This document shows, in pieces, positions 17,535 through 33,893 of a DNA stretch of 33,893 bases. Both the position numbers and the translations under genes were made by a program. The DNA is from a bacterium (lineage in GTDB: Bacteria > Fidelibacterota > UBA2242). The notes under the pieces are model-generated. The model had not been told where the DNA came from. It searched no databases and was given only the letters and a program-made list of their open reading frames with translations. Where the stretch lies: assembly GCA_018895675.1 (NCBI GenBank), contig JAHIOG010000495.1, positions 1 through 33,893 of the forward strand, written 5' to 3'. Numbering within the stretch: the first letter of the stretch is position 1; each line of letters opens with the position of its first letter.

Positions 17535-17746
17535 AACGGGTTAATCAACAAATAAATCGTCAGGCTTAATATGATTTTTTACTTTTTTATCGACCATTGG
17601 TCCATGAATAAATTTTCTCTTATGAAATATACGTGGCGCAGTTCTTGAAACAGTTAAGCTGGCATCCATTATAAAAAGGATTTTTTCATTACCTTTCTCT
17701 TTTAAAGTGGCTTCCATAGCATCTTGCAAATTAGTCTCCCGAGTAA
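17535..17746. repeat. ~210-bp duplication, copy 1 (matches 20055-20266 at about 92%)
   Basis: Aligned by eye at a constant offset of 2520 nt. I counted about 16 mismatches over ~200 nt and no indels. It covers the last ~65 codons, the stop and 6 nt of 3' flank of the larA-like gene. Confidence 0.85.
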
Positions 17747-17879
17747 CTACAAACCTTATACTCTTTAGCGGTTTTAATGTTAAATCGAAAACCTCTTTTT
17801 CTTTGACAATATTCAAAATTTTAGTGTCTTCAAAGTGTTTAAAAAGCTTTCTGGGATAATGATAAACTATCGCATACAA
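17541..17879 (-). pseudogene. 3'-terminal remnant of a larA-like gene (TTG-initiated 112-aa track ORF)
   Basis: The C-terminal 65 aa (TNLQDAMEATLKEKGNEKILFIMDASLTVSRTAPRIFHKRKFIHGPMVDKKVKNHIKPDDLFVD) parallel the C-terminus of the 445-aa LarA-like protein. Only weak similarity lies upstream (LKPLKSIRFVV vs LKPELLNRIFI). There is no N-terminal catalytic domain, and the 'start' is TTG. Confidence 0.6.
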
Positions 17880-18232
17880 ATTGATTTTTTCACGGTTAAG
17901 ATTGTTGATTTTTCTGTAATTCGCAAAAAATGTCCGAAAAATTCCTCTAATGCTTCTGTATCAAAAGATTCGCTAGCCGATTTGAACGAAATTAGTTTAT
18001 GTTCATTTATTTTCTTCAAATCTTCACCGAAAATCCGAAATAGTACTGAGAAATGAGGTTTTCCCTCTAATCTTTGTACAACGATAGTGTCAACGTATTG
18101 TGATTGCTGTATAAGACCAACCTCGATTTTTGCCTCAAAACCCAGCTAAGAAAATAGTGGCGCTGAAACCAATCCTAAAAGTCGATGCCAATTAGTTCTT
18201 TTTGACTCATTTTGGCTCGCCATTTAAATAAC
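17867..18232 (-). pseudogene. decayed ORF of unknown function interrupted by an in-frame TAG
   Basis: From ATG (cat at 18230-18232): MASQNESKRTNWHRLLGLVSAPLFS-TAG-LGFEAKIEVGLIQQSQYVDTIVVQRLEGKPHFSVLFRIFGEDLKKINEHKLISFKSASESFDTEALEEFF... open to the stop at 17867. It has 122 codons with one internal stop. TAG is a genuine stop in this genome (the histidine kinase at 9217-9219 ends in TAG). Confidence 0.3.
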
Positions 18233-18248
18233 TAATTCACGAATTAAT

Positions 18249-19964
18249 TTACAGAGCATTTACCAATTTTCCAAGCAGCGCTGGTTTCGATAATAGATCC
18301 GATGACTTCAAAAACTCACAGCGTTGCTCAAAACGATCTTTTATTAATGCTATATATCCTTCTGGATTGGTGCGCTTATATGGATTATATTTTTCATAAT
18401 AACCTGGAAGTAACTTATCGATAGATTCTTTTGTAGGAATCATCGCTCCAGGTAATAATTTCCAATCTTCCCACTCAATTTGGTCCATCAAAATACCAGT
18501 GTGAATCGTAAGCGAAGTCTGGAGTTCAATATTTTCCAAATGCTCATCAGAGGATTTCCAGTATCCAGATGAATTGAAAGTGTAACACTCTGCACCCGTT
18601 TCTAACACTTTTAGAAATGCCTCGACATCTTTATAAAGTTCATAAACTCTAAATGGATTTGCAAATGGTTCAAAAACCAATTTTGCTAATTCCTCCTCTG
18701 TTACATTTTCGGCTCTGCTTCTTTTTGTAATTAATGCCGCTCCCATCGCAACAGCAAGATATTTGTCTTTATATTTTAGTGCAGGCGGTAAAATTGTATC
18801 TTTCATGAGCCAGACCAGTGCTTTAGGAAAACTACACCTATTTACCCATTTTCCAAGAAGGTCGCGGTCAAAAAGAGCCCGTCCATTTGCCTGACGAATA
18901 TCACGTCCGAGGGGAAGTAACTTTCCATCGTTTTTTATCAAAGCGTGATTCATAACCGCAAGACAATACTCCCAATCCGGATGGTCTGTATTTCGACTAT
19001 CTGTTTTATCAAAGAGCGAAGGTTCCCAAACGCGACAAACCTTTCCTTCTGTGTCAATCTGAAATGCATCATCGTGAAGCGTCGCTTTCTTAAAACCTTT
19101 AGGTAATGTACCTCCATTATCATGTGAATTTGTATGAGAAGACTTTCCAGTTCCCGAAAGTCCAAAAAATGCTATAGATTTCTTTCCTAAAACTCTATGT
19201 TCTTTATTATCACATTCAGAAAAATCAATCTCTTTAATGCCGCCATGACAAGCAGCCATTCCCAATCTCATACCGGAAGACCACGCAAGAGTCAGGGTCC
19301 CTTTTTTACGTTCACCAAAATAGCGCATCCCCAAATTGAAAATCACATTATGTTTTTCGTCAACTAAGGCAAGTTGCGGCGCACCAACATTATGATAATA
19401 TGGGTCATCACATGTCCATTCGTTAAATGCCACAATTATAATATCCTGAATTGGCAGAACTTTGCTGTTTTCATATTCTTCTGTCAATTCGATTGGGTTA
19501 AAATTTGACAACCAGTTAAACACATTACTTGCATCGTTTGTTGATGTAACGAAAGTTGCCTTTATCATTAAATCGGGATCCAATCCTATCACTGCTTCTG
19601 CTTTAATAAGGTCATAATGTTCAAGCTGATATATTGCTTCTCTAATATCACCTTCAACCTTTTTCTTATCTGCTGCAGGAATCCGATTATAAAATCTCCT
19701 CGCTTTTGCAGTTCTACCAATAATTTTACCATGACAATCATTTAGGACCTTTGCTCCTTTTGGCAGTCCAAAAAGCGCAGCTGTCCGAGGATATATTTCT
19801 AAGTCTGTTTCTGATACACCAGCTTGGTTTTTTGCCATTTCATAAGCTTCAGCAATGTTTATCTTTCGCACTTTTGGATTTAAAAGTACTGCTTCAGCAA
19901 TTGCTCGAAGCGGAGACATTTCTGTTAAATCTTTGTAATACTTATCACTTGGTAAACTCGACAT
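18249..19964 (-). CDS. pckA: phosphoenolpyruvate carboxykinase, divergent ATP-type
   Basis: 571 aa with a kinase-1a P-loop FFGLSGTGKSS, a YFGERKKG block (canonical YAGEMKKG) and an LHDDAF block (canonical IGDDEH). Order and spacing fit ATP-PEPCK, but several signature residues differ. Confidence 0.75.
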   Translation of the reverse strand: MSSLPSDKYYKDLTEMSPLRAIAEAVLLNPKVRKINIAEAYEMAKNQAGVSETDLEIYPRTAALFGLPKGAKVLNDCHGKIIGRTAKARRFYNRIPAADKKKVEGDIREAIYQLEHYDLIKAEAVIGLDPDLMIKATFVTSTNDASNVFNWLSNFNPIELTEEYENSKVLPIQDIIIVAFNEWTCDDPYYHNVGAPQLALVDEKHNVIFNLGMRYFGERKKGTLTLAWSSGMRLGMAACHGGIKEIDFSECDNKEHRVLGKKSIAFFGLSGTGKSSHTNSHDNGGTLPKGFKKATLHDDAFQIDTEGKVCRVWEPSLFDKTDSRNTDHPDWEYCLAVMNHALIKNDGKLLPLGRDIRQANGRALFDRDLLGKWVNRCSFPKALVWLMKDTILPPALKYKDKYLAVAMGAALITKRSRAENVTEEELAKLVFEPFANPFRVYELYKDVEAFLKVLETGAECYTFNSSGYWKSSDEHLENIELQTSLTIHTGILMDQIEWEDWKLLPGAMIPTKESIDKLLPGYYEKYNPYKRTNPEGYIALIKDRFEQRCEFLKSSDLLSKPALLGKLVNAL

Positions 19965-20054
19965 AATTCATTTCCTTCCTTTTAAATAAAAAATTCATCA
20001 CAATTGAAATTACAAATGGTATATAATTATTTATTGGTAGTCAGAAAGCATAGG

Positions 20055-20266
20055 AACGGGTTAATCGACAAATAAATCGTCAAGCTTAATATGATTTTTT
20101 ACTTTTTTATCTACCGTCGGTCCATGAATAAATTTTCTCTTATGAAATATACGCTGTGCTATTCGTGGAACAGTTAAGCTGGCATCCATCATAAAAAGGA
20201 TTTTTTCATTACCTTTCTCTTTTAAAGTGGCTTCTATAGCTTCCTGCAAATTAGTATACCCTTTAA
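20055..20266. repeat. ~210-bp duplication, copy 2 (intact larA-like 3' end)
   Basis: See copy 1 (17535-17746). Confidence 0.85.
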
Positions 20267-21398
20267 TAAATATTCTATTCAATAATTCTGGTTTTAAATT
20301 TGTGTATGCCCATAAGGATGCCCATTTCATAATTTCTGCCATTTTAGCTGCCTTATGATAACCCAATTTATATCCTTTTTCAATCTTATCAAAAACTTCA
20401 TCCGGGTTTCTGGCTTCACTCAATAATTTTATGAAACTCTCTCCACCTATACCTTTTCGACAACTCGAAACCAAAATGAGAATCCCATTTGGGTTCAACG
20501 CAAGTTTGCTATTATCAATTGCTTTCTGAGATTGGTAAAGGTCGATATCCATCGGATAAGGTGCAACTGCGACCACGATATCTGCCCTATCTCTGATTTC
20601 CACTGAAAATACGTCTTTTGCTTTTTCACATGCCAATTTGAATGCTTTGTGAGTTTCTCCACAGGCGCAATAATAGATTTTATGATCTTTATTCAGAACA
20701 GTTTGAATTGAAAAAATCTGTTTGTCTTTTGCTATACAATCATAGGCTTCTTTGATGTCGTCTCTAACCGGATTTCCTTCGGTTACAAGAGCTTTTGCTG
20801 TCGCATTCAAAGCCAGTTCATGATTTCGTTCAATAGTCTCATATCCGGAAATTCCGGGTAAAAAGGACTTTGCTCCACCAGTATAGCCTGCAAAATAATG
20901 AGGCTCAACCGATGTGATATAGACTATCTTTTCTGCTTCAATTACCAGTTTATTAAAAAAGACTTCAGTGCCATTTTTAGTTACACCAACAAAGACATTC
21001 CCAGCTTCATTCTTAGAATCGTGGGAAAATATTTTTTTTTCCAATTCGCGAAAATGATATCCAAAAATTTCAAGGTATTCATCTTTGCTTGGAGCTCTAT
21101 GAGCACCTGTAGCAACTAAGAACTTAATGCTTTTATTCAGTATTTTATCCCAGAGCAGGTCTATTATTCTCGCACTTGGTGTAGGTCTGGTAGCATCATT
21201 TATAATAAAGAGAATGGGCTCATTGCCTTTTGCAAAATCGTCAAAACTTTTAAAATCAACCGGGCTGTTTAATGCATCAAAGAGAACTTCTTTTTCAGGT
21301 CGAATTTCAACAGTATTCGGATATACTATTTCTCCGATATTTTGTTCGGGGAGAGATACTGTTAATTCTTCTCCCCAATAAGGAATTTTTATCTGCAT
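20061..21398 (-). CDS. LarA-like nickel-pincer-nucleotide-dependent 2-hydroxyacid racemase/epimerase family protein (DUF2088)
   Basis: 445 aa. Motifs match, as I recall them, the LarA catalytic and cofactor set: INDATRPTP (Arg), VATGAHR (His), EPHYFAGYTGGAKS (His plus the cofactor-tethering Lys), ERNHE (Ni-ligand His). The start ATG overlaps the upstream mdh stop (TAATG at 21396-21400). Confidence 0.8.
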   Translation of the reverse strand: MQIKIPYWGEELTVSLPEQNIGEIVYPNTVEIRPEKEVLFDALNSPVDFKSFDDFAKGNEPILFIINDATRPTPSARIIDLLWDKILNKSIKFLVATGAHRAPSKDEYLEIFGYHFRELEKKIFSHDSKNEAGNVFVGVTKNGTEVFFNKLVIEAEKIVYITSVEPHYFAGYTGGAKSFLPGISGYETIERNHELALNATAKALVTEGNPVRDDIKEAYDCIAKDKQIFSIQTVLNKDHKIYYCACGETHKAFKLACEKAKDVFSVEIRDRADIVVAVAPYPMDIDLYQSQKAIDNSKLALNPNGILILVSSCRKGIGGESFIKLLSEARNPDEVFDKIEKGYKLGYHKAAKMAEIMKWASLWAYTNLKPELLNRIFIKGYTNLQEAIEATLKEKGNEKILFMMDASLTVPRIAQRIFHKRKFIHGPTVDKKVKNHIKLDDLFVD

Positions 21399-22330
21399 TA
21401 AATTAATTGTTCAGATTCAATTTTTTCTATAACTTCTCTTACTTTATCAGCAGAAAGATGAAGAGCCTGCTTCTCTTCCGTTGTAAGTGATAATTCAATT
21501 ATTTTTTCAACACCATTTTTTCCAATTACAATCGGTACACCTGCAAATAGACCGTCGATTCCATATTCTCCCCTCAAATAGGCAGAACAGGGAACGATTC
21601 TGTTTCTGTCTCGCACAATGCATTCAACCATCTCAGCAGCAGAACTTCCGGGTGACCAGTAAGCACTACCGGTTTTAAGGTAGGCAACGATTTCTCCACC
21701 TGCTTTTCTGGTTCGTTCAATTAATCTGTCTATCTTGTCTTTTGGCAGCAAATCTGTAATCGGGATACCATGCACTGTGGAATATCTGGGTAATGGGACC
21801 ATAAGGTCTCCATGACCGCCAAGTACTAAAGCAGTTACATTTTTGGGACTGACTCCAAGTTCTTCAGCTATAAAATATCTGAATCTTGATGAATCCAGTA
21901 TGCCAGCCATCCCAATAACTTTTTTTAAGGCAAATCCTGTGACTTTTAGAGCAACATAAGCTAAAATATCAAGCGGATTTGTAACTGTGATCACCACAGC
22001 ATTAGGAGCATATTTAGCAATGCTTTCCGATACACTCTTCATAATTTTTACATTATCACGAAGCAAATCTTCCCTGGACATACCTGGCAATCTCGGTTTA
22101 CCGGCTGTTACAACAACCACTTCAGAATCTTTGATCATTGATATATCGGTATATCCATTAACAGATACATCGTATTTTCGGATAGGTGAGGCATGTACAA
22201 TATCCAAAGCTTTTCCTTCAGCCCATCCGTCGACAATATCAATTAATACTATATCTGAAACTTTTTTTTCAATTAAATATAGTGCTGTTGCTACACCAAC
22301 GTTTCCACTTCCAATAATACTAACTTTCAT
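21398..22330 (-). CDS. mdh: malate dehydrogenase (LDH-like, type 3 MDH)
   Basis: 310 aa: IIGSGNVG, TAGKPRLPGMSREDLL (Arg at the LDH/MDH discriminator position, so malate/oxaloacetate), TNPLD, GMAGILDSSRFR, GGHGDLMVPL, KTGSAYWSP. Confidence 0.9.
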   Translation of the reverse strand: MKVSIIGSGNVGVATALYLIEKKVSDIVLIDIVDGWAEGKALDIVHASPIRKYDVSVNGYTDISMIKDSEVVVVTAGKPRLPGMSREDLLRDNVKIMKSVSESIAKYAPNAVVITVTNPLDILAYVALKVTGFALKKVIGMAGILDSSRFRYFIAEELGVSPKNVTALVLGGHGDLMVPLPRYSTVHGIPITDLLPKDKIDRLIERTRKAGGEIVAYLKTGSAYWSPGSSAAEMVECIVRDRNRIVPCSAYLRGEYGIDGLFAGVPIVIGKNGVEKIIELSLTTEEKQALHLSADKVREVIEKIESEQLI

Positions 22331-22339
22331 GATGACCCC

Positions 22340-23263
22340 CTAAATTCCCATTGATTCAATAGTTTTATTGATTATATCCGCTGATACCTGCAGTTCTTTT
22401 CTTATAGGCAGGGATAATTCAAGTTCGATTATTTTCTCAACGCCATTCTTTCCAAGTTGAACTGGTACACCTAAACAAATATTTTTATAACCATACTCTC
22501 CATCAAGGCACGTCGGAACACATAGTATTGCTCTGGTATCATTTATGATTGCACCCACAGTTTCTGCTATGGAAGCACCGGGAGAATACATAGATGTCTG
22601 CCTTTTTAACAGTGATAGAATAGTTGTTCCTGCTTCCCTGGCTTCTGATATTATTTTATCAACTTTTTCTTTGGGAAGTAACTCATTGATCGGTATGCCA
22701 CAAACCCGAATAAATTCTGGAGGTATAACCATGAATTTATGATGACCTCCTAAAACAAGGGCACTTACTTCAACCGATGTAACGCCAAGTTCCTGTGCAG
22801 TATATTCACAAACCCGCGTAACATCAAGTTTCCCTGCAACTCCAATTACCTTCATTCTGTCAAATCCTGTCTTTTTAAAAGTGTAATAAGTTAAAGTTGT
22901 AACAGGTTCAGTTATAACAATAACGATTGATTTCGGAGCATACTTTTTGACATCTTCTATTATCGGATCAATAATCTTCACATTAACTTCAAGTAACTCA
23001 AGACGTAAGGTGTTGGGTTTTCTAACTTTACCTGCAGTTATTACAACAACTTTAGAGCCTTTAATATCTTCAATATGAGAAGATCCCTGAATTTTAATGT
23101 CATAACCCCGTAAAGGTGAAGCTTCAGCAAGGTCAAGTGCACTTCCTTCTGCTTTACCTTCTAAAATATCAATAAGCATAATATTCGCAATACCCATCTC
23201 AGCCAAATAAAATGCCGCTGCAACCCCTACATTGCCACTGCCAATAATTGAAACTTTCTCCAT
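22340..23263 (-). CDS. divergent LDH/MDH-family 2-hydroxyacid dehydrogenase (second mdh paralog)
   Basis: 307 aa on the same scaffold (IIGSGNVG, TAGKVRKP..LRLELL, GVAGKLDVTR, GGHHKFMV). Signature blocks are altered: TNPLD becomes TEPVT, GGHGD becomes GGHHK, and MSRDDL becomes TLRLEL. GGAGG RBS present. It ends 9 nt before mdh. Confidence 0.75.
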   Translation of the reverse strand: MEKVSIIGSGNVGVAAAFYLAEMGIANIMLIDILEGKAEGSALDLAEASPLRGYDIKIQGSSHIEDIKGSKVVVITAGKVRKPNTLRLELLEVNVKIIDPIIEDVKKYAPKSIVIVITEPVTTLTYYTFKKTGFDRMKVIGVAGKLDVTRVCEYTAQELGVTSVEVSALVLGGHHKFMVIPPEFIRVCGIPINELLPKEKVDKIISEAREAGTTILSLLKRQTSMYSPGASIAETVGAIINDTRAILCVPTCLDGEYGYKNICLGVPVQLGKNGVEKIIELELSLPIRKELQVSADIINKTIESMGI

Positions 23264-23692: not shown

Positions 23693-25030
23693 CTAATTTA
23701 CTTTAGCTACTACTTTATGAAGTTCCGGATTCTTTTCACACTCTTTCTCAAATTCCCTATCACGAAGTGAATTTCTATAATAGGGCGATTGGAATCTGTA
23801 AGTATATCTTACCTTATTACCCCTCGATTTTTCGTAAAGAGCTACAACATCTTCTATAAAGACTCTTTCTTCATCTGTTGGAATTACATAAATCTTTACC
23901 TTGGAATCCTCAGCACTGATATCACATTCCGCATTTCTTGTCTTTGCAATCTTATTTTTATTTTTATCATATTTGATTCCCATAAAATCCAGACCATCCA
24001 GAGCCCTTGCCCTTATAAGATCGCACATCTCACCAACTCCTGCTGTAAAGACGATAGCATCAATACCACCTATTGCCGCTGCGTAGGCACCAATATATTT
24101 CCTAATTCTGTATGTCTCAATATCAAGTGCAAGTTTAGCTCTCTCATCGCCTCTCTCGGCTGCCTCGATTACTTCACGTCTATCATTATATTCACCTGTT
24201 ATACCCAGGATACCGGACTTTTTATTAAGTATTGAATTCATCTCATTGGCTGAATAGTTCTCCTTATCCATTATATAGAAATCAATAGCTGCATCATGGT
24301 CTCCAGCTCTCGTCCCCATCACCAATCCTTCTAACGGTGTAAATCCCATACTTGTATCAAAAGATATCCCATTTTTAACTGCATTCAAAGACACACCATT
24401 CCCAATGTGACATATGATAAGATTACATTCAAAAGGATCTTTTCCCAGGAGAACCGATGCCCTTCTTGAAACATAAAGAAGAGATGTCCCATGAAATCCA
24501 TATCTTCTTATTTTATATTTCTCATACCATTCATAAGGCAGAGCGTACGTAAATACATATTTAGGCATTGTTTGGTGCCATGCTGTATCCATAATTGCCA
24601 TATGTGGAACATTAGGTAACAACTCTTTTGCTGCTTCTATACCAAGTATATTTGGTAGATTATGAAGTGGTGCCAAATCTGCTAACTTCTTAAATTCCTC
24701 AACAACTTCATCGGTTATAATAACAGATTTAGCAAACCTCTCACCACCATGAACAACACGATGTCCAACTGCGGATATTCCCATAAGTTCCTTGATTACA
24801 CCCTCTTTTAGAGATGTAAGCATTTCAATAATAAGTTTTATCGCCTCGCGATGTGTTGGACACTCACTTTCAACCCTGACACTGTCCTGCCCAGTGACTT
24901 CCTGTATGCAAAAGCTGCCTTTACTTGTCACTCTCTCAACAATTCCAGTTGCAATAGTTTGCTTTTTGTTCCAGTCATATAGCCTATATTTCACAGATGA
25001 GCTTCCACAATTAAGGCATAATATGATCAT
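23693..25030 (-). CDS. ackA: acetate kinase with a ~45-aa C-terminal extension
   Basis: ILCLNCGSSSVKY, GHRVVHGG, FHGTS, ICHIGNG.S, GTR.GD.D, FTAGVGE, IPTDEE are all AckA/ASKHA signatures. The ATG overlaps the stop of the upstream REC-malic enzyme gene (ATGA at 25027-25030). Confidence 0.95.
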   Translation of the reverse strand: MIILCLNCGSSSVKYRLYDWNKKQTIATGIVERVTSKGSFCIQEVTGQDSVRVESECPTHREAIKLIIEMLTSLKEGVIKELMGISAVGHRVVHGGERFAKSVIITDEVVEEFKKLADLAPLHNLPNILGIEAAKELLPNVPHMAIMDTAWHQTMPKYVFTYALPYEWYEKYKIRRYGFHGTSLLYVSRRASVLLGKDPFECNLIICHIGNGVSLNAVKNGISFDTSMGFTPLEGLVMGTRAGDHDAAIDFYIMDKENYSANEMNSILNKKSGILGITGEYNDRREVIEAAERGDERAKLALDIETYRIRKYIGAYAAAIGGIDAIVFTAGVGEMCDLIRARALDGLDFMGIKYDKNKNKIAKTRNAECDISAEDSKVKIYVIPTDEERVFIEDVVALYEKSRGNKVRYTYRFQSPYYRNSLRDREFEKECEKNPELHKVVAKVN

Positions 25031-26778
25031 TTCGCCTCCTGTTTTTTAGGCATTTTTATAAAACCACCTTTCATTAATGACTCAGTTTCTTCCCGAGCAA
25101 GTTTTATCATGGTTTCCGCCTTCTTATACAATTCCTCTCTTGACATCATTATTCTGGCAACACCTTGTTCGATTGCTTTCATTCCCACAGCAGTCGCTTC
25201 TCTTGGATAAACTTCCCATTCATCCATACTGGGGATTATGTACTCTTCTGAAAAACCTTTATCTTCAGCACATTTTGCGAGCTCGTAAGCTGCCGCTATA
25301 CACATCTCATCTGTTATTGTTTTTGCCATTACATCAAGAGTTCCCCTAAATATTCCAGGAAATCCCAGAGAATTGTTGACCTGATTAGGAAAATCCGATC
25401 TTCCGGTTGCAACTATTTTTGCGCCAGCCTCTTTTGCTTCCCAGGGCCATATCTCTGGAACAGGATTGGCACATGCAAAAACTATTGCATCGTTTGCCAT
25501 GCTTTTTACCCACTCAGGTTTAATTACACCTGGCCCGGATTTCGACAAAGCAATACAGACATCTGCACCTTTCAGAGCTTCAGGAATTCCTCCTATTCTT
25601 CCTTCGACATTTGTTTTTTCACACATTTCCCATTTCTCTTTATTCTCTGGATTATCAAGGTCTTTCCTATTTTTATGAAGTATACCCTTAGTATCGACCA
25701 TTATTATATTTTCAGGATTAACACCTGCACTAATTATAACTCTTGCAACACACAAATTCGAAGCACCGGCTCCTATCATTGTTATCTTTGCTTCTCCTAT
25801 CTCTTTCTCAACAAATTTTAATGCATTTATTAATCCAGCTAAAGTTACTGCCGCTGTTCCTTGCTGGTCATCATGCCACACAGGAATATTCATTTCTTTT
25901 CTTAATCGGTCCAAAATATAGAAGCACTTCGGTTTAGCAATATCCTCCAGATTTATTCCACCAAATGTTGGCTTCAACCACTTACATGCAGTAATTATTT
26001 CTTCTGGATCCTTGGTATCTAACATTATAGGAAAAGCGTCAACACCACCTAAATATTTAAAAAGGATTGCCTTTCCCTCCATTACAGGCAAGCCGGCTTC
26101 AGGTCCTATATCACCAAGACCTAAAACTCTTGTTCCATCAGATACAACTGCTACAAGATTACCCTTACTTGTATGCTCATAAACCTTTTGAGGATTCTTG
26201 TTAATATCACGGCAAGGTTCAGCAACACCAGGTGTATACCAGATTGCAAAATCATTGAAATCCCTGATACAGCATTTAGGTACAACTGAAATCTTACCAT
26301 GATAATAAGGATGCAACTCCATAGCATCCTCTCCCGGTTTCCTGGCCTTGGCAAGAAGTTCTTCAAGAGATACTGTTTTGGTAAGTAGCTTAACTCTTTC
26401 TAAGAGCACTTTAGCCGGAACCGGCTTTTCAAGAAAGTCATCTACGGGCAGAAGTTGTGTACCGGCTATTTCCTTAAAATTTGTTTCCATTATCTTCTGG
26501 ATACTAGTTATTATTAATATCGGTATCTTGGAACACTCAAAATATGGCGAATCCCTGTCCGGATTTCTTAGTTTATTAACGACTCCCAAACCAGCTGTAA
26601 TATGTTCCATCATAATATCGAGTACAATTAAGTCAGGCTTAACTTCCTTGACTTTTTCAAGACCCTCTTTTGCCGAATATGCGCAAGTACATTCATAAGA
26701 ATTTTTTTCCAGTATATTCTTGACTGCTTTTACGAAATCAACATCATCATCAATAATAAAGATTCTCTTTTTGTCCAT
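25027..26778 (-). CDS. response-regulator receiver domain fused to a NAD(P)-dependent malic enzyme (short prokaryotic type)
   Basis: 583 aa. Residues 1 to about 125 form a CheY-like REC (IFIIDDDVD, DLIVLDIMM, ILIITS, DDFLEKPV). Residues from about 150 to the end form a complete malic enzyme (YHGKISV, WYTPGVAEPC, VVSDGTRVLGLGDIGPEAGLPVMEGK, GGINLEDI, HDDQQGTAAV, MIGAGASN, FACANPVPE). AGGAGGG RBS present. Confidence 0.85.
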   Translation of the reverse strand: MDKKRIFIIDDDVDFVKAVKNILEKNSYECTCAYSAKEGLEKVKEVKPDLIVLDIMMEHITAGLGVVNKLRNPDRDSPYFECSKIPILIITSIQKIMETNFKEIAGTQLLPVDDFLEKPVPAKVLLERVKLLTKTVSLEELLAKARKPGEDAMELHPYYHGKISVVPKCCIRDFNDFAIWYTPGVAEPCRDINKNPQKVYEHTSKGNLVAVVSDGTRVLGLGDIGPEAGLPVMEGKAILFKYLGGVDAFPIMLDTKDPEEIITACKWLKPTFGGINLEDIAKPKCFYILDRLRKEMNIPVWHDDQQGTAAVTLAGLINALKFVEKEIGEAKITMIGAGASNLCVARVIISAGVNPENIIMVDTKGILHKNRKDLDNPENKEKWEMCEKTNVEGRIGGIPEALKGADVCIALSKSGPGVIKPEWVKSMANDAIVFACANPVPEIWPWEAKEAGAKIVATGRSDFPNQVNNSLGFPGIFRGTLDVMAKTITDEMCIAAAYELAKCAEDKGFSEEYIIPSMDEWEVYPREATAVGMKAIEQGVARIMMSREELYKKAETMIKLAREETESLMKGGFIKMPKKQEAK

Positions 26779-26804
26779 TTTCCCTCCTAATTATCACTAT
26801 CTCT

Positions 26805-26828
26805 CCTTTCCAGTAGTTGTTGGAAAGG
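26805..26828 (-). promoter_or_regulatory. perfect 8-bp hairpin in the leader of the REC-malic enzyme gene
   Basis: CCTTTCCA-GTAGTTGT-TGGAAAGG, 26 nt upstream of the ATG at 26778 and about 13 nt upstream of its AGGAGGG RBS. No U-tract follows on the minus strand. Confidence 0.25.
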
Positions 26829-26935
26829 TCGAGGAAGTAATTCACATAAAACCATAATATCATAAGAATCGATGCAAATAACTGTAAATAATGTTTTATA
26901 ATTGCTCATCTCATTCTTATAAGCATCTAACTCTA

Positions 26936-27724
26936 CTAAACATATTTTCGTATCTTTGCCAATATATGTTCAGACTTTATTGGTTTAGGAATAAACTCAT
27001 CTACCTTATGTGTACCAGCCATAGTACGCGCAAAATCGGGCTTTCTAAATTGCTTATCAAGAGCTGTTAGCATAATAATGGGTATATTATATGTTCGAGT
27101 ATCTGTCTTTAATTCACGTGATACTGTAAAGCCGTCTTTATCTGGAAGCATAGCATCTATTAATATAAGATCAGGCAGCATCGCCTTAGCCATCTTAATT
27201 CCCCCATTTGCAGTATCTGCAGACTGTACTTCAAAATCATTCGATTCTAATAACTCCCGCATTGAGCGTACAAAATCTATATCACCATCAATAATCAGTA
27301 CTTTCTTTTTATTTGTCGGTTCAGAGACAGTGATTCTCCTTCGAGTAATCAATGCATAGACTCTTGCAAGTAATTCTTTTGGATCAATGGGTTTCTCCGC
27401 AAAATCATCGGCATTGTGGTATAAAGCGATTCTCTCTGCGTATTTTTTTCCCTCAAATTCGGTACTGACAGATGTCAAAATAAGGATTGGTATCTCCAAT
27501 AAGCCTGTCATTTTCTTTAACTCACTGCATATTGAAAAACCATCTTCACCCGGCAACATTATGTCCAATATTACAAGGTCAGGTTTCTCTTTTTTAAACT
27601 TCCGTAGCGCCTCTTTTCCATCGAATGCCGTAACAATATCATGTCCGTTACTTTCCAATATTTTAGTTGTAGATTTGCAAAAATCGACATCATCATCTAC
27701 GAGTAAAATTTTTGCTCCCTTCAT
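26936..27724 (-). CDS. tandem double-receiver (REC-REC) response regulator without an output domain
   Basis: 262 aa. REC1: ILLVDDDVD...DLVILDIMLPGEDG...ILILTS...FAEKP. REC2: VLIIDGDID...DLILIDAMLPDKDG...IIMLTA...FIPKP. GGAGGAG RBS present. The start overlaps the upstream kinase stop (ATGA at 27721-27724). Confidence 0.85.
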   Translation of the reverse strand: MKGAKILLVDDDVDFCKSTTKILESNGHDIVTAFDGKEALRKFKKEKPDLVILDIMLPGEDGFSICSELKKMTGLLEIPILILTSVSTEFEGKKYAERIALYHNADDFAEKPIDPKELLARVYALITRRRITVSEPTNKKKVLIIDGDIDFVRSMRELLESNDFEVQSADTANGGIKMAKAMLPDLILIDAMLPDKDGFTVSRELKTDTRTYNIPIIMLTALDKQFRKPDFARTMAGTHKVDEFIPKPIKSEHILAKIRKYV

Positions 27725-28824
27725 TTCTCCTCCTCACTTTTTGGCAAAAGCACTGTAAAAGTACTCCCCTTCTCAGGTTTACTTGTTACCTTGATAGTAG
27801 CGGAATGAGCATCCATTATCCTTTTTACAATTGATAAGCCCAAGCCGGTACTATCAGATTTAAATTCAACTTGATAAAATTGTTCGAAGATAAAAGGCAA
27901 TTTATCCTCTGGAATTCCGATACCATTATCAGAAATACTCACCTCTATATATCCATTCTTTTCTTTTGCACCAACAAACAGACTTCCACCATAATTACCA
28001 TATTTTATTCCATTATCAACCAAATTTAAGAACGCCTGTTCCAGAGTTTCCTTATCAGCAGAAATTGTAGGAAGATTTTCAGGAATATCCATCTTTAGAG
28101 TAATGTTCTTTTCCTTTGCAATTGTCTGCATCAAATTAAAAATATTCGTGAAAATTGAAGTTATATTTACCGATGCCAATTTTTTTACAATCCTATTAGC
28201 ATCTATCTTTGATAGATTAAGCCAGTCCTTGATTAAATATATCAGCTGGTCAATGCGAATTTTAGACCTCTCCAGCATCTCTCTTTGTTCATCATTGACT
28301 TCACCAGCCATACCACCGAGAATTACTTCAAAATATTGCTGCACAGCAACAAGAGGAGTTCTAAGTTGATGTGAAACCATACTAATGAATCCTTCTCTCA
28401 TTTCATTTTTCTCTTGAAGTAAGCGATTAGATTCAATAGTCAATCGCCTTTTCTCAAGGGCTCTTTTAGTGATCAGTCGTAGCTCTTCAGGAGTAAACGG
28501 CTTAGGCAAAAAATCGTATGCGCCTTTTTTCATCGATTCGATTGCCGAATCTATTGACGCATAACCCGTTATCACTATAGTAACAATTTCCGGGTCAATT
28601 TTTTTAATCTCTTCAAGCACAACCATACCACTTATCCCGGGCATTTTCAGGTCAACAAGCACAAGATCGGGATTTATATCTTTAACCTTTTGCATGCCAG
28701 AAATACCATCGCCTGCAATATCTACTATATAACCACTTTTCACGTATGTCTGCACACATGCATCACACATGGATTCATCATCATCAATAATAAGTATTGT
28801 AATATTTTCTGTTCTATTAATCAT
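27721..28824 (-). CDS. REC-HisKA-HATPase_c histidine kinase whose only input domain is a receiver
   Basis: ILIIDDDES...DLVLVDLKMPGISG...VITGYAS...DFLPKPF, then a coiled linker, the H-box SHQLRTPL, N box LVDNGIKY, and G boxes DNGIGI and GLGLSI. There is no TM, PAS or GAF segment. The track ORF begins at a TTG (28917); I prefer the ATG at 28822-28824, but neither has a good RBS. Confidence 0.85.
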   Translation of the reverse strand: MINRTENITILIIDDDESMCDACVQTYVKSGYIVDIAGDGISGMQKVKDINPDLVLVDLKMPGISGMVVLEEIKKIDPEIVTIVITGYASIDSAIESMKKGAYDFLPKPFTPEELRLITKRALEKRRLTIESNRLLQEKNEMREGFISMVSHQLRTPLVAVQQYFEVILGGMAGEVNDEQREMLERSKIRIDQLIYLIKDWLNLSKIDANRIVKKLASVNITSIFTNIFNLMQTIAKEKNITLKMDIPENLPTISADKETLEQAFLNLVDNGIKYGNYGGSLFVGAKEKNGYIEVSISDNGIGIPEDKLPFIFEQFYQVEFKSDSTGLGLSIVKRIMDAHSATIKVTSKPEKGSTFTVLLPKSEEEK

Positions 28825-29043: not shown

Positions 29044-30876
29044 TCATTTCATCAATATGAACAATAAAACTGCAAATCCGATGATAATCCAGAGTATATA
29101 AATTGGTAAAATACCCCTGTGTATCTTACTTAAACCCGAGTAAAGAGAAAAAGAGATGGTTTTTCCCCATTCATAAGGATCAAATGCTCGTGCCTTTGCT
29201 TTTTTATACAGGTACTTTAAAAAGCCAGTAGATTCAATAGTATCGTAAAAATGAATTCCTGATATTCTTAGCTCCTCACAATCGATAGGCTCTCCACCCA
29301 CGAAAATATCCCCCTCTTTCAAAGCCTTAATGTTTCCTAATCGATAGAAGATTATCCCGCATACCAGGCTGAAAGCAAGAAGAGTAGTGGCTAATGTAGG
29401 GCTCCACATCCCATTAAGGTTAATAGCTTCCCCAATTCCACTGAATCTTACTTCCAACACCGGTCCAATAAAATATTTTAAAGGGAATTGAGCAAAGATC
29501 CCAAAAAACACACAGAAAAGAGCAAGGATTACCAAAGGAACTTTCATCGAGAATTCCACTTCCTTCGGTTCCATGATCTCTTTTGGCATTTCACCCAAGA
29601 AGACCGAATGAAGAACTTTTACAAAAGAGGCCAGGGTTAATGCACTACCAAACATGGCGGCAATTAAAAAAATAGGCCATATTGAACCACCTACATCGAT
29701 TATCCCTTGATACACCATCCATTTGGAGACAAACCCATTTAAGGGGGGAATCCCGGATATGGAGAGGGCCGCAATCACACAGGTAATGAAAGTCACCGGC
29801 ATCGTCCTGGCTAAACCGCCTAACCTTTCTAAGTTAGTTGTTTTTATTCTGTGTTCAACCGCCCCGCAACACAGAAAGAGACAACATTTGTAAATGACGT
29901 TATTCAACATGTGAAATAACCCGCCAGCAATCCCTATTAGTGTTCCGGTGCCGATCCCCAAAACCATATACCCGACTTGCGAGACGGCATGATAAGAGAG
30001 CAACTTTCTCAGATCTTTTTGAACCAGGGCCATCATCACAGCGGCAATTATGGTGACTGCACCGATGCTCATCAAGAGAACCTTCATACTATAATCCATT
30101 ATGAAGAGGTCTAAAGCGATCCTAACCAAGAGGTAAATTCCAAGTAGCTTATCGAGCGCTGCTGGGAGAAAAGCCATAACTGGTACGTGGGCAACTTCAG
30201 CTGCATCCGGAATCCAGCTATGAAAAGGCATAGCACCTGCCTTAGCAACGGCTCCAATTGTCAGAAGAATAAAAGCTGCTGTAGACAATCCATCTTCTAT
30301 GGGGATTATTATCTCATTCATTGTTATGGTGCCTTTAAGATGCCAGATAATAACCACACCCAATAACATGAGAAAATCTGAACCTCCTACGATGATAATA
30401 CTCTTTAATGCCGCTTTTCCAGAGCCAGACCCACTAATATCTATAAGAAGATATAACAATACCGGCATAATACTCCAAAAAATCAGTAGAATAACCAGAT
30501 TGTTAGAAAGGATAGAACCATTAGCAATCCCCACCGTCCAAAGTAGATAGATGTAATATTCTTTCAAATGATATTTGCCTTTCATCTGTTTTAGAGAATA
30601 GATTGTGATTAACAATCCGAAAAACGAGCAAGCAAGGAGAATGAAGGCGCTAAAGTGGTAGGAGATAAGATCAAAATTTATTTGCGCAGAAGAGAGGGTA
30701 ATCCACTCTATCTGCAATCTGAGTTCATTCAAAAGTAGGATTTTCAAAGCCACAGCAGTGGTCAGTAGCATCCCAATAAAAGTGAATACCTCCCTGATTC
30801 GCTGCCAAGGAACAATTAGACATATAAATCCTATAGTTATTGGCAATATAATCGGAATGAGAAGAATCAAATTCAT
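29044..30876 (-). CDS. NuoL/HyfB/MrpD-like proton-translocating antiporter-type membrane subunit of a group 4 hydrogenase
   Basis: About 610-aa polytopic protein with antiporter-like blocks (WIPDAAEVAHVPVMAFL, SQVGYMVLGIG, HMLNNVIYKCCLF). The track ORF starts at 30936, inside the upstream gene. The ATG at 30874-30876 follows AGGAG and sits 2 nt after the upstream stop. Confidence 0.8.
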   Translation of the reverse strand: MNLILLIPIILPITIGFICLIVPWQRIREVFTFIGMLLTTAVALKILLLNELRLQIEWITLSSAQINFDLISYHFSAFILLACSFFGLLITIYSLKQMKGKYHLKEYYIYLLWTVGIANGSILSNNLVILLIFWSIMPVLLYLLIDISGSGSGKAALKSIIIVGGSDFLMLLGVVIIWHLKGTITMNEIIIPIEDGLSTAAFILLTIGAVAKAGAMPFHSWIPDAAEVAHVPVMAFLPAALDKLLGIYLLVRIALDLFIMDYSMKVLLMSIGAVTIIAAVMMALVQKDLRKLLSYHAVSQVGYMVLGIGTGTLIGIAGGLFHMLNNVIYKCCLFLCCGAVEHRIKTTNLERLGGLARTMPVTFITCVIAALSISGIPPLNGFVSKWMVYQGIIDVGGSIWPIFLIAAMFGSALTLASFVKVLHSVFLGEMPKEIMEPKEVEFSMKVPLVILALFCVFFGIFAQFPLKYFIGPVLEVRFSGIGEAINLNGMWSPTLATTLLAFSLVCGIIFYRLGNIKALKEGDIFVGGEPIDCEELRISGIHFYDTIESTGFLKYLYKKAKARAFDPYEWGKTISFSLYSGLSKIHRGILPIYILWIIIGFAVLLFILMK

Positions 30877-30878
30877 TT

Positions 30879-31814
30879 TTACTCTCCTATCAGTGCCAGA
30901 ATCATCCCGACAACCGCAAGCGGAGTCACAAGCCACCAGAAGAACTTAATTGCCTGATCAATACGGAGGCGAGGATGAGTTGTTTTGATTAATATTATTA
31001 GAAGAAGAATTGCCAGATATTCAACCAGTACAATTAGAATTCCTTTTATATTGAAATTAATTCCACCGAAAAAAAGAGAAATCAAAAAGAAGGGTAAGAT
31101 AAATAACATCATAGCATTGGTTAATTTGAATATAGCAAGCGAGACGCCGGAATATTCTGCCAGAGTGCCCCCAATAATTTCTGTTTCTGCCTCCGGAATA
31201 TCGAAAGGTATGTAGGTGAGTTTAGCCTGAATACAAGGGAGACAGACGATAAAAGCAATTACACACGAAGGATTTCCCACTAAAACTCCCTGAATGGATT
31301 GAAATGTGATAATCTCTCCCAAGAGTATTGATTTGACCTTCAATATAACGGTAATAATTGCAATGAGAAATGGCAGTTCATATGCTAATATCATTTTCAT
31401 TTCCCTGCTAGCGCCTATGACTCCAAAAGGATTTCGCGAAGAAGAACCACCCATAATTAAAGCAAGAGAAGGTAGAATCAATAAGTAAAGCACTACAATC
31501 AAGTCACCTACAAAACTTACTTCCTGGTTTATGTTTACTCTCCAGATTATGGTCGATACCAGAGTGATGCCGGCTAATCCTAAAAGAGGAGCCAATAAAA
31601 AACCAGCCTTTCTGCTCCCTCTGGGTATTATCATCGTTTTGCCCATCAGTTTGAGAACATCGGCATAACACTGATACCAGGGTGGTCCTATTCTACTTTG
31701 GATTCGTGCGGCTATCTTTCTATCGACCCAACAGAAGAAAAGGCCGAAGACACAAGTAAAAATTAAACCTGGAAAGATAATTGTATAGAATATGGCTCTT
31801 AAAATGTCATCCAT
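30879..31814 (-). CDS. NuoH/HycD/EchB-like membrane subunit of a group 4 hydrogenase
   Basis: 311 aa, about 8 TM segments, with RKI.AR.Q.R.GP, FD.PEAE.E and EYSG motifs of the NuoH/HycD family. It overlaps the upstream gene by 16 nt. Confidence 0.85.
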   Translation of the reverse strand: MDDILRAIFYTIIFPGLIFTCVFGLFFCWVDRKIAARIQSRIGPPWYQCYADVLKLMGKTMIIPRGSRKAGFLLAPLLGLAGITLVSTIIWRVNINQEVSFVGDLIVVLYLLILPSLALIMGGSSSRNPFGVIGASREMKMILAYELPFLIAIITVILKVKSILLGEIITFQSIQGVLVGNPSCVIAFIVCLPCIQAKLTYIPFDIPEAETEIIGGTLAEYSGVSLAIFKLTNAMMLFILPFFLISLFFGGINFNIKGILIVLVEYLAILLLIILIKTTHPRLRIDQAIKFFWWLVTPLAVVGMILALIGE

Positions 31815-32278
31815 TTTTCGGGACTTTCTTCTTTTAAGATTACTGGAGAAACTTTCTTCTTAACTAATCCTAATGCCACTGCAATGCCATAAAGGATAGC
31901 TTCAGGGCGGGGTGGACATCCGGGGATGAAGTAATCAACAGGAAGTACTTTATCAACACCACCTATAACATTGTAGGTGTTGTACCAAATTCCACCACCA
32001 ATGGCACAGGATCCAATAGCAATGATCAACTTAGGATCGGGCACAGAATCGTACAAACATTTGAGGGCGGGAACTACTTGTCGGGTCACGGGGCCGCAAA
32101 CTAATAGTGCATCAGCGTGCCGAGGGGTTCCCACTAATTTGATCCCGAATCTCTCAGCGTCATAATAGGGTGTCAACGCATTAATTACCTCGATGTCACA
32201 GCCGTTACAGGCTCCGGTATTTGTGTGATAAACCCAGATGGATTTCTTGAAGCATTTGTTTAATAGAGTCTTGAACAT
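31799..32278 (-). CDS. NuoB-like [NiFe]-hydrogenase small subunit (HycG/EchC/MbhJ type)
   Basis: 159 aa: CNGCDIE...GPVT...GSCA.GGG...IPGCPPRPEA, the four-Cys proximal [4Fe-4S] motif of NuoB/group 4 small subunits. Confidence 0.9.
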   Translation of the reverse strand: MFKTLLNKCFKKSIWVYHTNTGACNGCDIEVINALTPYYDAERFGIKLVGTPRHADALLVCGPVTRQVVPALKCLYDSVPDPKLIIAIGSCAIGGGIWYNTYNVIGGVDKVLPVDYFIPGCPPRPEAILYGIAVALGLVKKKVSPVILKEESPEKWMTF

Positions 32279-32429
32279 GACTGCTATCCCCTTAAATTAA
32301 CCGCAAAGTTAGCTGAGTGGTTGTAAAACATGTAAGTGTAATAAAAACTCAGTAATTTTTGTACCTTCTTTGTGTTCTCTACATTTAAAAAGTTTGTGCT
32401 TTCAAATGTGCTATTTGCCAATTTAATAC

Positions 32430-33893
32430 CTAAATATTTTTCTTTATTTTCTCAGTCTTTTCTCTACTCAGGCTCATTAAATCCTGACAATTTAAAGTTT
32501 GCTTATCGGTTTTTTTCTTCACTACGATCATTCGCTCTGTACACGAGAAACAAGGATCGAGGCTGCCGATTGCAATAAGGACATCTGCTATTTGTTCATT
32601 CTTAATGATTGCCGGAACAACCTGAAGATTGGGATAGGTCGGGGCTCTTACTTTCCAGCGATAAGGTCGATTTTCACTACCAGTTAACACGTAATGTATG
32701 GCTTCACCACGTGGGGCTTCTACCACACAGATAGCTTCTTTATTAGGTGGAATCTCTTCCACGTGAGCCATGATCTCTCCTTCAGGCATTTCTCTGAGTG
32801 CTTGTCTTATGATCTTTACTGATTCAAATAATTCCTCTAATCGGACTAAAGTACGAGACCAACAACACCCATCCTGCTTAACTGGAACTTTAAATTGCAG
32901 CTTGTCATAGGCAGCATAGGGATGATCCCTACGAGAGTCGATATTCACTCCTGAGGCTCTAGCAACAGGACCGACCACACACATATCTAAAGCCTCATCC
33001 TTTGTTAGTACACCCACCTTTTTTAATCTGACATGCAAAGAAGTGTCGCCAAGAATAGCATTCACTAGAGCCTTTAATTCCTTCTCAATTTTATCGATTG
33101 TTTCATAAACTTTTGGATGTAATTCCTTGTGAATATCTCTTCTTACTCCTCCTATTAGGTTCATACCGTAAGTTTTTCTGTTGCCGGTAATCTGTTCGCA
33201 CAACCACATTACGGGTTCCCGGATGCGCCAGCTATGCATCAGGATGGTATCAAATCCAATGATATGACCAGCAATCCCAACCCATAAGAGGTGACTTGCT
33301 ATCCTTTCCAGCTCCAGCATAATAGTGCGGATGTATTGGGCTCGGGGAGGCACTTTTATGTCTGCAGCTTCTTCAATAGCCTGACAGTAACAGCATGAAT
33401 GCACAAATCCACAAATACCGCAAATGCGTTCAGCCATAAAGCATATTTGGTTGTAGGTCTGGACGCTGTCAGCGAGTTTTTCTATACCTCTATGATTATA
33501 GAATCCCCTGTAGTCACAGCCTACGACTTTCTCACCCTCAACAAAGACCTTAAAGTAAGCGGGCTCTTCTAAAACCGGAAAAAAAGGACCAATGGGTACA
33601 ACCTTGGCACCTTTAGGTGGTGGTGCTAATTTCACCCTGTTTTGAGGTCGGGCAGGAGGTTTGTAGTCGTAAGGGAAGTCTCTACATAAAGGGTAAACAT
33701 CATCGGGCCAATCATCAGCAAGTACCAATCGACGGGGATCCGGGTGATTCCGTGGATGAACCCCGATCATGTCACGAACTTCCCGCTCTGCCCAGTTCGC
33801 ACCCGGGATTATTGGAGTGATGGAGTCTATAAAAGGGATGTTGGGATCAATATGTGTATGGATGCACACAAACAGTTTTTCGTTATCCAGTGA
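32430..33893 (-). CDS. group 4 [NiFe]-hydrogenase large subunit, NuoC-NuoD-like fusion (HycE-like); 5' end beyond the window
   Basis: The reading frame stays open to position 33893 (SLDNEKLFVCIHTH...), so the track's GTG at 33869 is not the real start. The NuoC-like part is PGANWAEREVRDMIGVHP..HPDPRRL. The large-subunit Ni-binding motifs RICGICGFVH (N-terminal) and DPCFSCTER (C-terminal) are retained, which separates it from complex I NuoD. Confidence 0.9.
   Translation of the reverse strand, partial: SLDNEKLFVCIHTHIDPNIPFIDSITPIIPGANWAEREVRDMIGVHPRNHPDPRRLVLADDWPDDVYPLCRDFPYDYKPPARPQNRVKLAPPPKGAKVVPIGPFFPVLEEPAYFKVFVEGEKVVGCDYRGFYNHRGIEKLADSVQTYNQICFMAERICGICGFVHSCCYCQAIEEAADIKVPPRAQYIRTIMLELERIASHLLWVGIAGHIIGFDTILMHSWRIREPVMWLCEQITGNRKTYGMNLIGGVRRDIHKELHPKVYETIDKIEKELKALVNAILGDTSLHVRLKKVGVLTKDEALDMCVVGPVARASGVNIDSRRDHPYAAYDKLQFKVPVKQDGCCWSRTLVRLEELFESVKIIRQALREMPEGEIMAHVEEIPPNKEAICVVEAPRGEAIHYVLTGSENRPYRWKVRAPTYPNLQVVPAIIKNEQIADVLIAIGSLDPCFSCTERMIVVKKKTDKQTLNCQDLMSLSREKTEKIKKNI

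Follow-up and report, generated by a model that had tools for sequence, protein, structure and literature searches.

In a 33,893-nucleotide stretch of DNA from a bacterium of the Fidelibacterota (GTDB UBA2242; assembly GCA_018895675.1, contig JAHIOG010000495.1, positions 1-33,893; hereafter the window), one minus-strand gene (25027-26778) encodes a protein of 583 amino acids in which a receiver domain of two-component signalling (REC) is fused to a malic enzyme (ME). The REC-ME fusion recurs in relatives, where it adjoins histidine kinase and acetate kinase genes, and a second receiver-bearing malic enzyme stands beside the same family of sensor kinases. As far as the sequences allow, this arrangement suggests that a sensory pathway controls a central-carbon enzyme directly, and not through gene expression alone.

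The fusion gene is one uninterrupted open reading frame with an ATG start, and an AGGAGG ribosome-binding site lies 5 nt 5' of the ATG. Three Pfam domains score above their gathering scores in the chain: Response_reg (PF00072; residues 6-130, 59.5 bits against a gathering score of 30.2, E 4.4e-16), malic (PF00390; residues 162-293, 108.5 bits, E 4.4e-31) and Malic_M (PF03949; residues 306-521, 87.9 bits, E 8.7e-25). The same scan found no DNA-binding or other output domain. All parts are encoded on the minus strand. The receiver comprises residues 4-132 (26383-26769), with an insertion around alpha4 (about residues 95-112), and its predicted phospho-acceptor, Asp54 (codon at 26617-26619), occupies the position of the acceptor Asp of the Response_reg profile. 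The junction (residues 133-160; 26299-26382) consists of the end of REC alpha5, a four-residue break and the native N-terminal helix of the malic enzyme. It is followed by the N-terminal substrate/metal domain (residues 162-293; 25900-26295), the NAD(P)-binding domain with a GAGASN Rossmann motif (residues 306-521; 25216-25863), and a C-terminal helical extension (residues 522-583; 25030-25215) which is common to the stand-alone homologues of about 447 residues and to the solved structure 3nv9. The initial annotation, made from the letters of the DNA, had proposed a single 583-residue frame joining the two proteins, the three Pfam families in one chain, and the receiver motifs IIDDD, DLIVLD, ILIITS and FLEKP; the frame and the domains were recovered as described, and the motifs lie at residues 8-12, 49-54, 87-92 and 115-119, respectively.

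Homologues of the fusion were sought among about 5.8 billion proteins and grouped at 90% identity. The REC-ME architecture was found in 30 clusters of 577-592 residues, 61-96% identical to the window protein and alike in their three Pfam domains; they come from NCBI, JGI, ENA and Logan assemblies, independent of one another. One of them (P0001, 96% identical) is present on 11 contigs, and the junction (residues 133-160) is among the best conserved segments, with a mean pairwise identity of 0.76 among fusions. Since 30 clusters from independent assemblies carry the same architecture, the fusion did not arise from a chimera or frameshift in this assembly, which the initial annotation had named as a finding that would undo its claim. 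That a frameshift, a chimera or a missed stop joined two genes during assembly or annotation is thus effectively refuted, with a probability close to nil: nothing was found in its favour, the window being one unverified sequence whose exact protein has no database record, and the same continuous frame and length recur throughout the clusters. The fusion recurs in relatives labelled Candidatus Cloacimonetes or Cloacimonadota, a member of the FCB group; one is labelled 'Neomarinimicrobiota' and several plainly 'bacterium'. At least 3 of 185,579 GTDB species representatives carry it. Public automatic annotation names these proteins either 'response regulator' or 'malate dehydrogenase (oxaloacetate-decarboxylating)'. 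One enzyme that looked stand-alone while sharing 98% identity with a fusion (P0052) was set aside as probably an N-terminally truncated fusion on a 1.7-kb contig. A distance analysis of the malic enzyme part did not prove the monophyly of these fusions, hereafter lineage 1, and the family evolves very slowly. Five members (P0018, P0019, P0021, P0024 and P0026) have a clearly different beginning of the NAD-binding domain, ~100 residues long (GIGAAGASVVR…VVDL…; columns ~330-430 of alignment A1), and are similar in the rest, which suggests recombination or a switch of cofactor specificity within the fusion clade.

Within the receiver, the residues of phosphorylation chemistry are invariant or nearly so. 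Asp10, Asp11, Asp54, Phe115, Lys118 and Pro119 are kept in 31 of 31 fusion sequences, as is Thr or Ser at position 91, while Asp12 and Ser92 are each kept in 30 of 31. Mean pairwise identity among fusions is 0.68 for REC versus 0.73 for ME, and pairs of receivers fall to a minimum of 42%. This is the conservation pattern expected of a working phospho-receiver, with the active-site chemistry apparently under purifying selection, in agreement with the complete CheY-like receiver claimed at first. The fused REC falls in a recognisable subfamily marked by an LD-x-MME motif after the acceptor Asp and by the insertion around alpha4. Its best NCBIfam receiver matches are to the PleD and OmpR/PhoB families, and it also matches solved receivers by sequence (e.g., YycF 2zwm, E 2.6e-10). 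It shares 37 and 32% identity with the two receivers of the tandem protein encoded next to it. A search with REC-specific patterns retrieved 77 loci from other phyla, and the receivers there that come closest to the fused REC (at most 52% identity) are stand-alone receivers of 125-150 residues or tandem receivers, with nothing C-terminal to REC.

The malic enzyme half (residues ~136-583) is 75-80% identical to stand-alone malic enzymes of 445-450 residues labelled Thermodesulfobacteriota, Acidobacteriota, WOR-3, Bipolaricaulia and Thermoplasmata. These begin exactly where the receiver ends (...KTxSxEELLAKAKKPGEDAM), so no linker was added between REC and ME. In the alignment of fused and stand-alone proteins the motifs WYTPGV (Tyr181), SDGTRVLGLGD (Arg217), VMEGK (Lys236), NLEDI (Glu278/Asp279) and HDDQQGT (Asp303/304), and the first and third glycines of GAGASN (Gly336 and Gly338), are invariant. 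We take Tyr181 and Lys236 to be catalytic, Arg217 to be a substrate residue, and Glu278, Asp279 and Asp303-304 to be metal ligands, as in malic enzyme structures. The best NCBIfam match is the NADP-dependent malic enzyme PRK12861, limited to model positions 9-414 of 764. The Pfam scan found neither a PTA_PTB (PF01515) nor an ACT domain in REC-ME, and the chain ends about 60 residues after Malic_M; without a PTA-like or ACT domain the fused enzyme is neither MaeB-type nor ACT-type. On a Thermodesulfobacteriota chromosome, a stand-alone orthologue is flanked by electron transfer flavoprotein (ETF), transcarboxylase, fumarase and biotin carboxylase genes, and neither AckA nor two-component genes were found beside it at this one locus. 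In that single stand-alone sample, the association with kinases and AckA is confined to the fused form.

An AlphaFold2 model of REC-ME built from a 66-sequence alignment has a mean predicted local distance difference test score (pLDDT) of 90.6 and a predicted TM score (pTM) of 0.81. The receiver adopts a (beta-alpha)5 fold in it, in which helices separate the strands at residues 4-9, 28-33, 50-53, 87-91 and 114-117; its pLDDT is 80-93 but for the alpha4 insertion, whose residues 100-110 are the sole low-confidence part of the model. At the junction, REC alpha5 (122-133) and the N-terminal helix of the malic enzyme (138-159) are separated by the break at 134-137, and the C-terminal extension folds as helices 523-538 and 547-570. 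An earlier model from 25 sequences was discarded, as residues 162-253 of the enzyme fell below pLDDT 50 and it was unusable for domain packing. The closest solved structures to the malic enzyme half are those of Entamoeba histolytica (3nv9; phmmer E 5e-143) and Pyrococcus horikoshii (1ww8/2dvm). Foldseek superposed the model on 3nv9 with a TM score of 0.89, a root mean square deviation of 1.5 Å and 51% identity, and on 2dvm/1ww8 with a TMt of 0.88; neither sequence search nor Foldseek found a PDB structure that covers REC and ME together. With the two Pfam domains, the invariant catalytic, metal and Rossmann residues and this fold match, the half is predicted to be a complete and catalytically functional small NAD(P)-malic enzyme, the short type that the initial annotation had recognized.

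The fusion gene lies in a minus-strand module of signalling genes. Two genes upstream is a REC-HisKA-HATPase_c histidine kinase (REC-HK; 27721-28824, 367 residues, by Pfam), for which the sequence around the start makes the ATG at 28824 the likely true start, the mechanical open reading frame beginning at a TTG at 28917. Between them, a tandem receiver (REC-REC; 26936-27724, 262 residues) shows two Response_reg stretches of the same subfamily as the fused REC and is likely a phosphorelay partner or sink. Directly downstream is acetate kinase (AckA; 23693-25030, 445 residues; Pfam Acetate_kinase 476 bits, NCBIfam TIGR00016 491 bits), whose ATG overlaps the ME stop codon (ATGA) and whose ribosome-binding site lies inside the 3' end of the ME gene, so that its translation is predicted to be coupled to that of REC-ME. 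The two phosphodonors first proposed, a two-component kinase and acetyl phosphate, thus gain support of a genomic kind. This AckA ends in a C-terminal tail of ~45 residues (23693-23830, minus strand; TRYTYRFQSPYYRNSLRDREFEKECEKNPELHKV). Among the loci fetched, the tail is conserved in the AckAs adjoining REC-ME, including the most divergent relative, and is not in the AckA of a locus lacking the fusion (L023); it could be an interaction motif. In the intergenic region upstream of REC-ME (26779-26935) there are the ribosome-binding site and one promoter-like site (26888-26859, 10/12 match), which is not statistically distinctive, as the region scanned holds 39 sigma70-like sites versus 28.9 +/- 5.0 expected. 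A search for sigma54 promoters (TGGCAC-N5-TTGC) gave a single match with one mismatch, on the wrong strand and at chance level; terminator scans gave no useful excess over the shuffled background, and Rfam and tRNA scans gave nothing relevant near REC-ME.

Nine distinct lineage-1 contexts were compared: the window, L001/L006, L005, L007, L008, L086, L087, L088 and L089. AckA is directly downstream of REC-ME in eight of the nine, and orthologues of REC-HK (363-380 residues) adjoin the fusion in seven of eight informative contexts, which span 61-96% identity. REC-REC is retained in related loci, some of which add a second REC-REC or a single REC. In five of eight informative contexts, a Cache_3-Cache_2/sCache_3-HAMP-HisKA-HATPase kinase and a REC-sigma54 activator are encoded just upstream; post-translational and transcriptional arms therefore probably run in parallel. 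The initial annotation had envisaged no transcriptional output, which stands for the protein, devoid of a DNA-binding domain, and probably does not stand for the system. The most divergent fusion (P0079, 61%) is immediately preceded by an additional AckA-like gene and a PTA_PTB gene. Furthermore, two open reading frames at conserved positions in the signalling module, in L089 (7927-8901, 324 residues) and L023 (4959-6707, 582 residues), have no Pfam match and may be uncharacterised components of the system.

A second fusion was found by an exhaustive HMMER search of 1.84 billion representatives with residues 1-240 as query, followed by Pfam scans of the candidates. Its type protein (P0156) consists of REC, an ACT-like module, malic and Malic_M (REC-ACT-ME), the ACT-like module being weak or faint by profile, and it belongs to nine clusters nested in the widespread ACT-ME family. 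It is 47% identical to the window protein in ME and 36% in REC. The receiver of P0156 is closest to a stand-alone REC encoded just upstream, not to the fused REC of lineage 1, and neither fused REC is as near to the other as it is to stand-alone receivers, which calls for two separate fusion events. The acceptor Asp is kept in eight of the nine clusters. A Cache-HAMP kinase follows REC-ACT-ME immediately downstream in three of four contexts, and shares 39% full-length identity with the Cache kinase of lineage 1 (E 8e-136). At L090, the gene downstream of REC-ACT-ME was suspected to be a kinase and proved to be an Fdh/NuoG-like oxidoreductase.

Among the 77 loci of other phyla, about 22-25 also have a kinase of this Cache family within 10 kb of a stand-alone receiver of the subfamily. 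Modules with a Cache histidine kinase, a sigma54 activator, REC-HK and REC or REC-REC, and no malic enzyme, occur in Planctomycetota, TA06, Aerophobetes and an unclassified bacterium. L023 lacks an ME fusion, and its gene order is Cache histidine kinase, sigma54 response regulator, an unknown gene, REC-REC, REC-HK, AckA and REC. A NiFe-hydrogenase operon follows the module in TA06, and the window, L052 and L088 likewise have hydrogenase genes beside it. L029 was not counted as an association, its malic enzyme being several kb from REC and on the opposite strand. The ligands of characterised Cache_3-Cache_2 domains are formate or C3 carboxylates, namely lactate, propionate and pyruvate (bioRxiv 10.64898/2026.04.10.717710). 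Taken together, the Cache family, the modules without ME, AckA, the hydrogenase neighbours and the Cache ligands point to a signalling system linked to the fermentative metabolism of carbon and hydrogen. It is a tentative and rather doubtful extension that the two fusions are 'Rosetta stones' for a widespread anaerobe system, in which a Cache kinase would signal through a REC-kinase and tandem receivers to LD-x-MME receivers with the alpha4 insertion that switch central-carbon or fermentation enzymes post-translationally. In such a system the Cache_3-Cache_2/HAMP kinase would sense a short-chain carboxylate, and the receivers would act on malic enzyme and perhaps on acetate kinase or hydrogenase-linked steps, binding them non-covalently in most phyla and being fused to their target in two lineages.

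For REC-ME itself, we consider it somewhat more probable than its opposite that Asp54 is phosphorylated by the kinases of the module and that the resulting change passes across the break to the malic enzyme helix, altering the activity or the oligomeric state of the enzyme. The input, most plausibly an extracytoplasmic short-chain carboxylate, would be relayed as a phosphoryl group by REC-HK and, in most relatives, also by the Cache_3-Cache_2/HAMP sensor kinase. Phosphorylation would change the alpha4-beta5-alpha5 face of the receiver, and the change could affect the enzyme because only about four residues (134-137) link this face to the N-terminal helix (138-159). Phosphorylation may activate the enzyme, by relief of inhibition or by receiver-driven dimerisation. 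The flux from malate to pyruvate, toward acetyl-CoA, acetyl phosphate and acetate, would thus be set post-translationally, in parallel with sigma54-dependent transcription, and acetyl phosphate from the co-translated AckA is a plausible second phosphodonor. We infer phosphotransfer, the effect on catalysis and its direction from the architecture, the conservation and the genomic associations observed.

Several points weigh against this mechanism. The direction of regulation, activation versus inhibition, is a guess. The window itself has a hydrogenase operon in place of the Cache kinase and sigma54 activator, and one relative (L088) encodes no two-component protein in the vicinity of its fusion. 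The adjacency of AckA could reflect merely the shared pathway from malate to acetate, the Cache ligands are assigned by membership of the domain family at low sequence similarity, and the pTM of 0.81 could come from the malic enzyme body alone, without informing the packing of REC. Finally, one REC-ACT-ME cluster (P0274) has lost the phospho-acceptor (Asp to Asn, Thr to Ala and Lys to Arg) and appears to be a pseudo-receiver derivative, so that a receiver may be retained without phosphorylation, at least there.

A source of phosphoryl groups other than the kinases has to be weighed. The receiver might autophosphorylate mainly from acetyl phosphate, which AckA makes or consumes, the pool downstream of pyruvate then setting the activity of the malic enzyme in a feedback or feed-forward loop; we regard this as rather unlikely as the main route. 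Several genomic features agree with it: the nearly constant position of AckA after REC-ME and its ATGA coupling in the window, the additional AckA-like and PTA_PTB genes beside P0079, the AckA between REC-HK and a homologous stand-alone REC in L023, the tail that AckAs next to REC-ME share and that of L023 lacks, and the absence of AckA near the stand-alone malic enzyme at the one locus inspected. The small T+1 residue, Ser92, is presumably compatible with small-molecule donors, as in the CheY family. However, dedicated kinases are adjacent as consistently as AckA, the REC-ACT-ME contigs, which are short, show the Cache kinase and no AckA, and pathway logic would by itself place AckA here; moreover, the kinase and acetyl-phosphate routes are compatible.

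Two further readings change the role of one of the halves. Signalling could flow in reverse, with occupancy of the malic enzyme by malate, NAD(P)H or pyruvate gating the phosphorylation of REC, and REC-ME, instead of being the target, would then be a metabolite-gated sink or connector that tunes the REC-HK/REC-REC/sigma54 phosphorelay. A wealth of receivers like that of this module (REC-HK, REC-REC and sometimes more) is characteristic of branched relays that contain sinks, the closest relatives of the fused REC stand alone and have no output, and the sigma54 activator would give such a sink a transcriptional read-out to act on. Yet the malic enzyme keeps an intact active site under very strong purifying selection, is indistinguishable from its catalytic stand-alone homologues, and could be regulated catalytically and act as a sink at once, which leaves reverse flow improbable. 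Still a little less probable is a receiver that works independently of phosphorylation, as a structural, oligomerisation or partner-binding pseudo-receiver, with the enzyme under classical allostery only. P0274 keeps the domain without its active-site Asp, Thr and Lys, and the beta3-alpha3 loop is atypical (D-x-M-M-E versus the common D-x-x-M-P); against this, the residues of phospho-chemistry are preserved in the 31 lineage-1 sequences even between receivers of 42% identity and in eight of nine clusters of the second lineage, and histidine kinases are consistently adjacent.

Other genes of the window extend the metabolic context. Read along the minus strand, group-4 NiFe hydrogenase genes come first, followed by REC-HK, REC-REC, REC-ME, AckA and two Ldh/Mdh-family genes, then a LarA homologue, a divergent phosphoenolpyruvate carboxykinase (PEPCK)-like gene, a long-type malic enzyme, aconitase, citrate synthase and isocitrate dehydrogenase; the co-directional malate-node genes downstream of AckA occupy 15808-23263 (minus strand; Pfam and NCBIfam). 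Both Ldh/Mdh-family genes score above an NCBIfam malate dehydrogenase subfamily cutoff. The LarA-family gene directly after them (20061-21398, minus strand) has the Ni-dependent malate racemase LarAH6 as best NCBIfam match (351.6 bits, below the 500-bit cutoff), which hints at interconversion of D/L-malate or another 2-hydroxyacid. The PEPCK-like frame (18249-19964, minus strand, 571 residues) reaches 41.5 bits with Pfam PEPCK_ATP and 91 bits in NCBIfam versus a cutoff of 369, and is missing from the corresponding position in L001, the locus of the 96% relative. It is thus a divergent or repurposed gene of recent gain or loss. The long-type malic enzyme (15808-17496, minus strand, 562 residues; Malic_M 359 bits, NCBIfam PRK13529 768 bits) belongs to the same co-directional train, and putatively regulated and unregulated malic enzyme isoforms therefore lie side by side. 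Directly upstream of REC-HK are group-4 (Ech/Mbh-like) NiFe hydrogenase genes (29044-33869, minus strand), one of which encodes a 479-residue protein fusing Complex1_30kDa and 49kDa/NiFeSe domains. Close relatives have the Cache kinase and sigma54 activator at this position, and a recent rearrangement is therefore indicated. An IS200-like Y1 transposase (9417-9983, minus strand; Pfam Y1_Tnp, 35 bits) is found at the end of the central-carbon train. On the plus strand, a hybrid histidine kinase of 1345 residues (5182-9219) combines four PAS domains with HisKA, HATPase_c and a C-terminal REC and might also feed into the receiver-rich module, and a tRNA-Met (CAT; 2899-2972) is the sole Rfam or ARAGORN match in the window.

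Compared with known systems, REC-ME resembles the MaeB hybrid enzymes (E. coli, Bdellovibrio; PDB 6zng, 9krw) in having a small-type malic enzyme core and a regulatory domain in one chain, the MaeB core being 41-47% identical to the fused enzyme with a Foldseek TMq of about 0.65. The regulatory domain of MaeB is C-terminal, PTA-like and acetyl-CoA-binding, and ties the enzyme to the acetyl-CoA/acetyl-phosphate branch; in contrast, REC-ME has an N-terminal phospho-receiver and no PTA domain, and its input would be phosphorylation instead of a ligand. A regulatory module at the N-terminus of a small malic enzyme is also seen in ACT-ME (476-484 residues), which is widespread (e.g., in Pyrinomonadaceae/Acidobacteriota), and in CBS-pair-ME (P0143, 579 residues), but ACT and CBS domains sense small molecules, whereas the window protein has neither domain and carries a two-component receiver. 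The initial annotation had counted a PTA-like domain and small-molecule allostery as the known regulatory additions to bacterial malic enzymes; both stand, and they are not the sole ones, as ACT-ME, CBS-ME and REC-ACT-ME exist. In the literature searched we found no experimental paper on ACT-ME. Public data also hold tandem ME-ME proteins of 850-860 residues (P0144/P0157) and an FCD-domain-ME (P0131), a 325-residue fragment that is possibly a gene-call artefact.

Among signalling proteins, the enzymatic response regulators (CheB, PleD/WspR, RpfG and PorX) likewise have an N-terminal REC, a short linker and a catalytic domain, and in them phosphorylation relieves inhibition or drives dimerisation. 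To our knowledge, the enzymatic outputs of receivers act on signalling molecules or signalling proteins, whereas the output of REC-ME is a core central-carbon oxidoreductase/decarboxylase; no central-carbon enzyme was found as a receiver output domain in the literature searched. Stand-alone receivers of the CheY, DivK and CpdR kind act by protein-protein interaction. The relatives of the fused REC are also single-domain, many of them beside the same Cache kinase family, but their target is not covalently attached, while that of REC-ME is fused and may identify the kind of target that the subfamily has. MaeKR, DcuSR and CitAB have a PAS/Cache-type extracytoplasmic carboxylate sensor kinase that governs malate use through malic enzyme (PMC5457438). 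These systems are known to act only through a DNA-binding regulator, on transcription of the enzyme gene. In REC-ME the receiver is part of the enzyme, and the sensor in its module is of the Cache_3-Cache_2/sCache_3 plus HAMP type with a separate sigma54 transcriptional arm. The claim that a receiver-controlled malic enzyme has not been characterised holds so far, as no paper on the fusion was found in a search of literature readable without subscription. Receiver-controlled enzymes and N-terminal additions to small malic enzymes are already known; a receiver controlling a core metabolic enzyme would be a further form of these and not a class of its own.

Two-component systems are textbook transcriptional switches. 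If the proposed mechanism is true, REC-ME would follow a distinct regulatory logic, in which an environmental sensor gates the malate/pyruvate node quickly and at the level of the protein. A second fusion that arose convergently, with a Cache kinase of the same family beside it, sets REC-ME apart from a one-off domain shuffle and argues for a selected rather than an accidental link. The protein is a testable case, with the switch and a simple spectrophotometric read-out in one chain, and a phospho-switchable malic enzyme would be a compact actuator for engineering. In addition, it could give a function to a large family of orphan single-domain receivers in uncultured anaerobes, among them Cloacimonadota-like bacteria, Planctomycetota, TA06 and Chloroflexota, several of which live as fermenters or syntrophs in anaerobic digesters and sediments.

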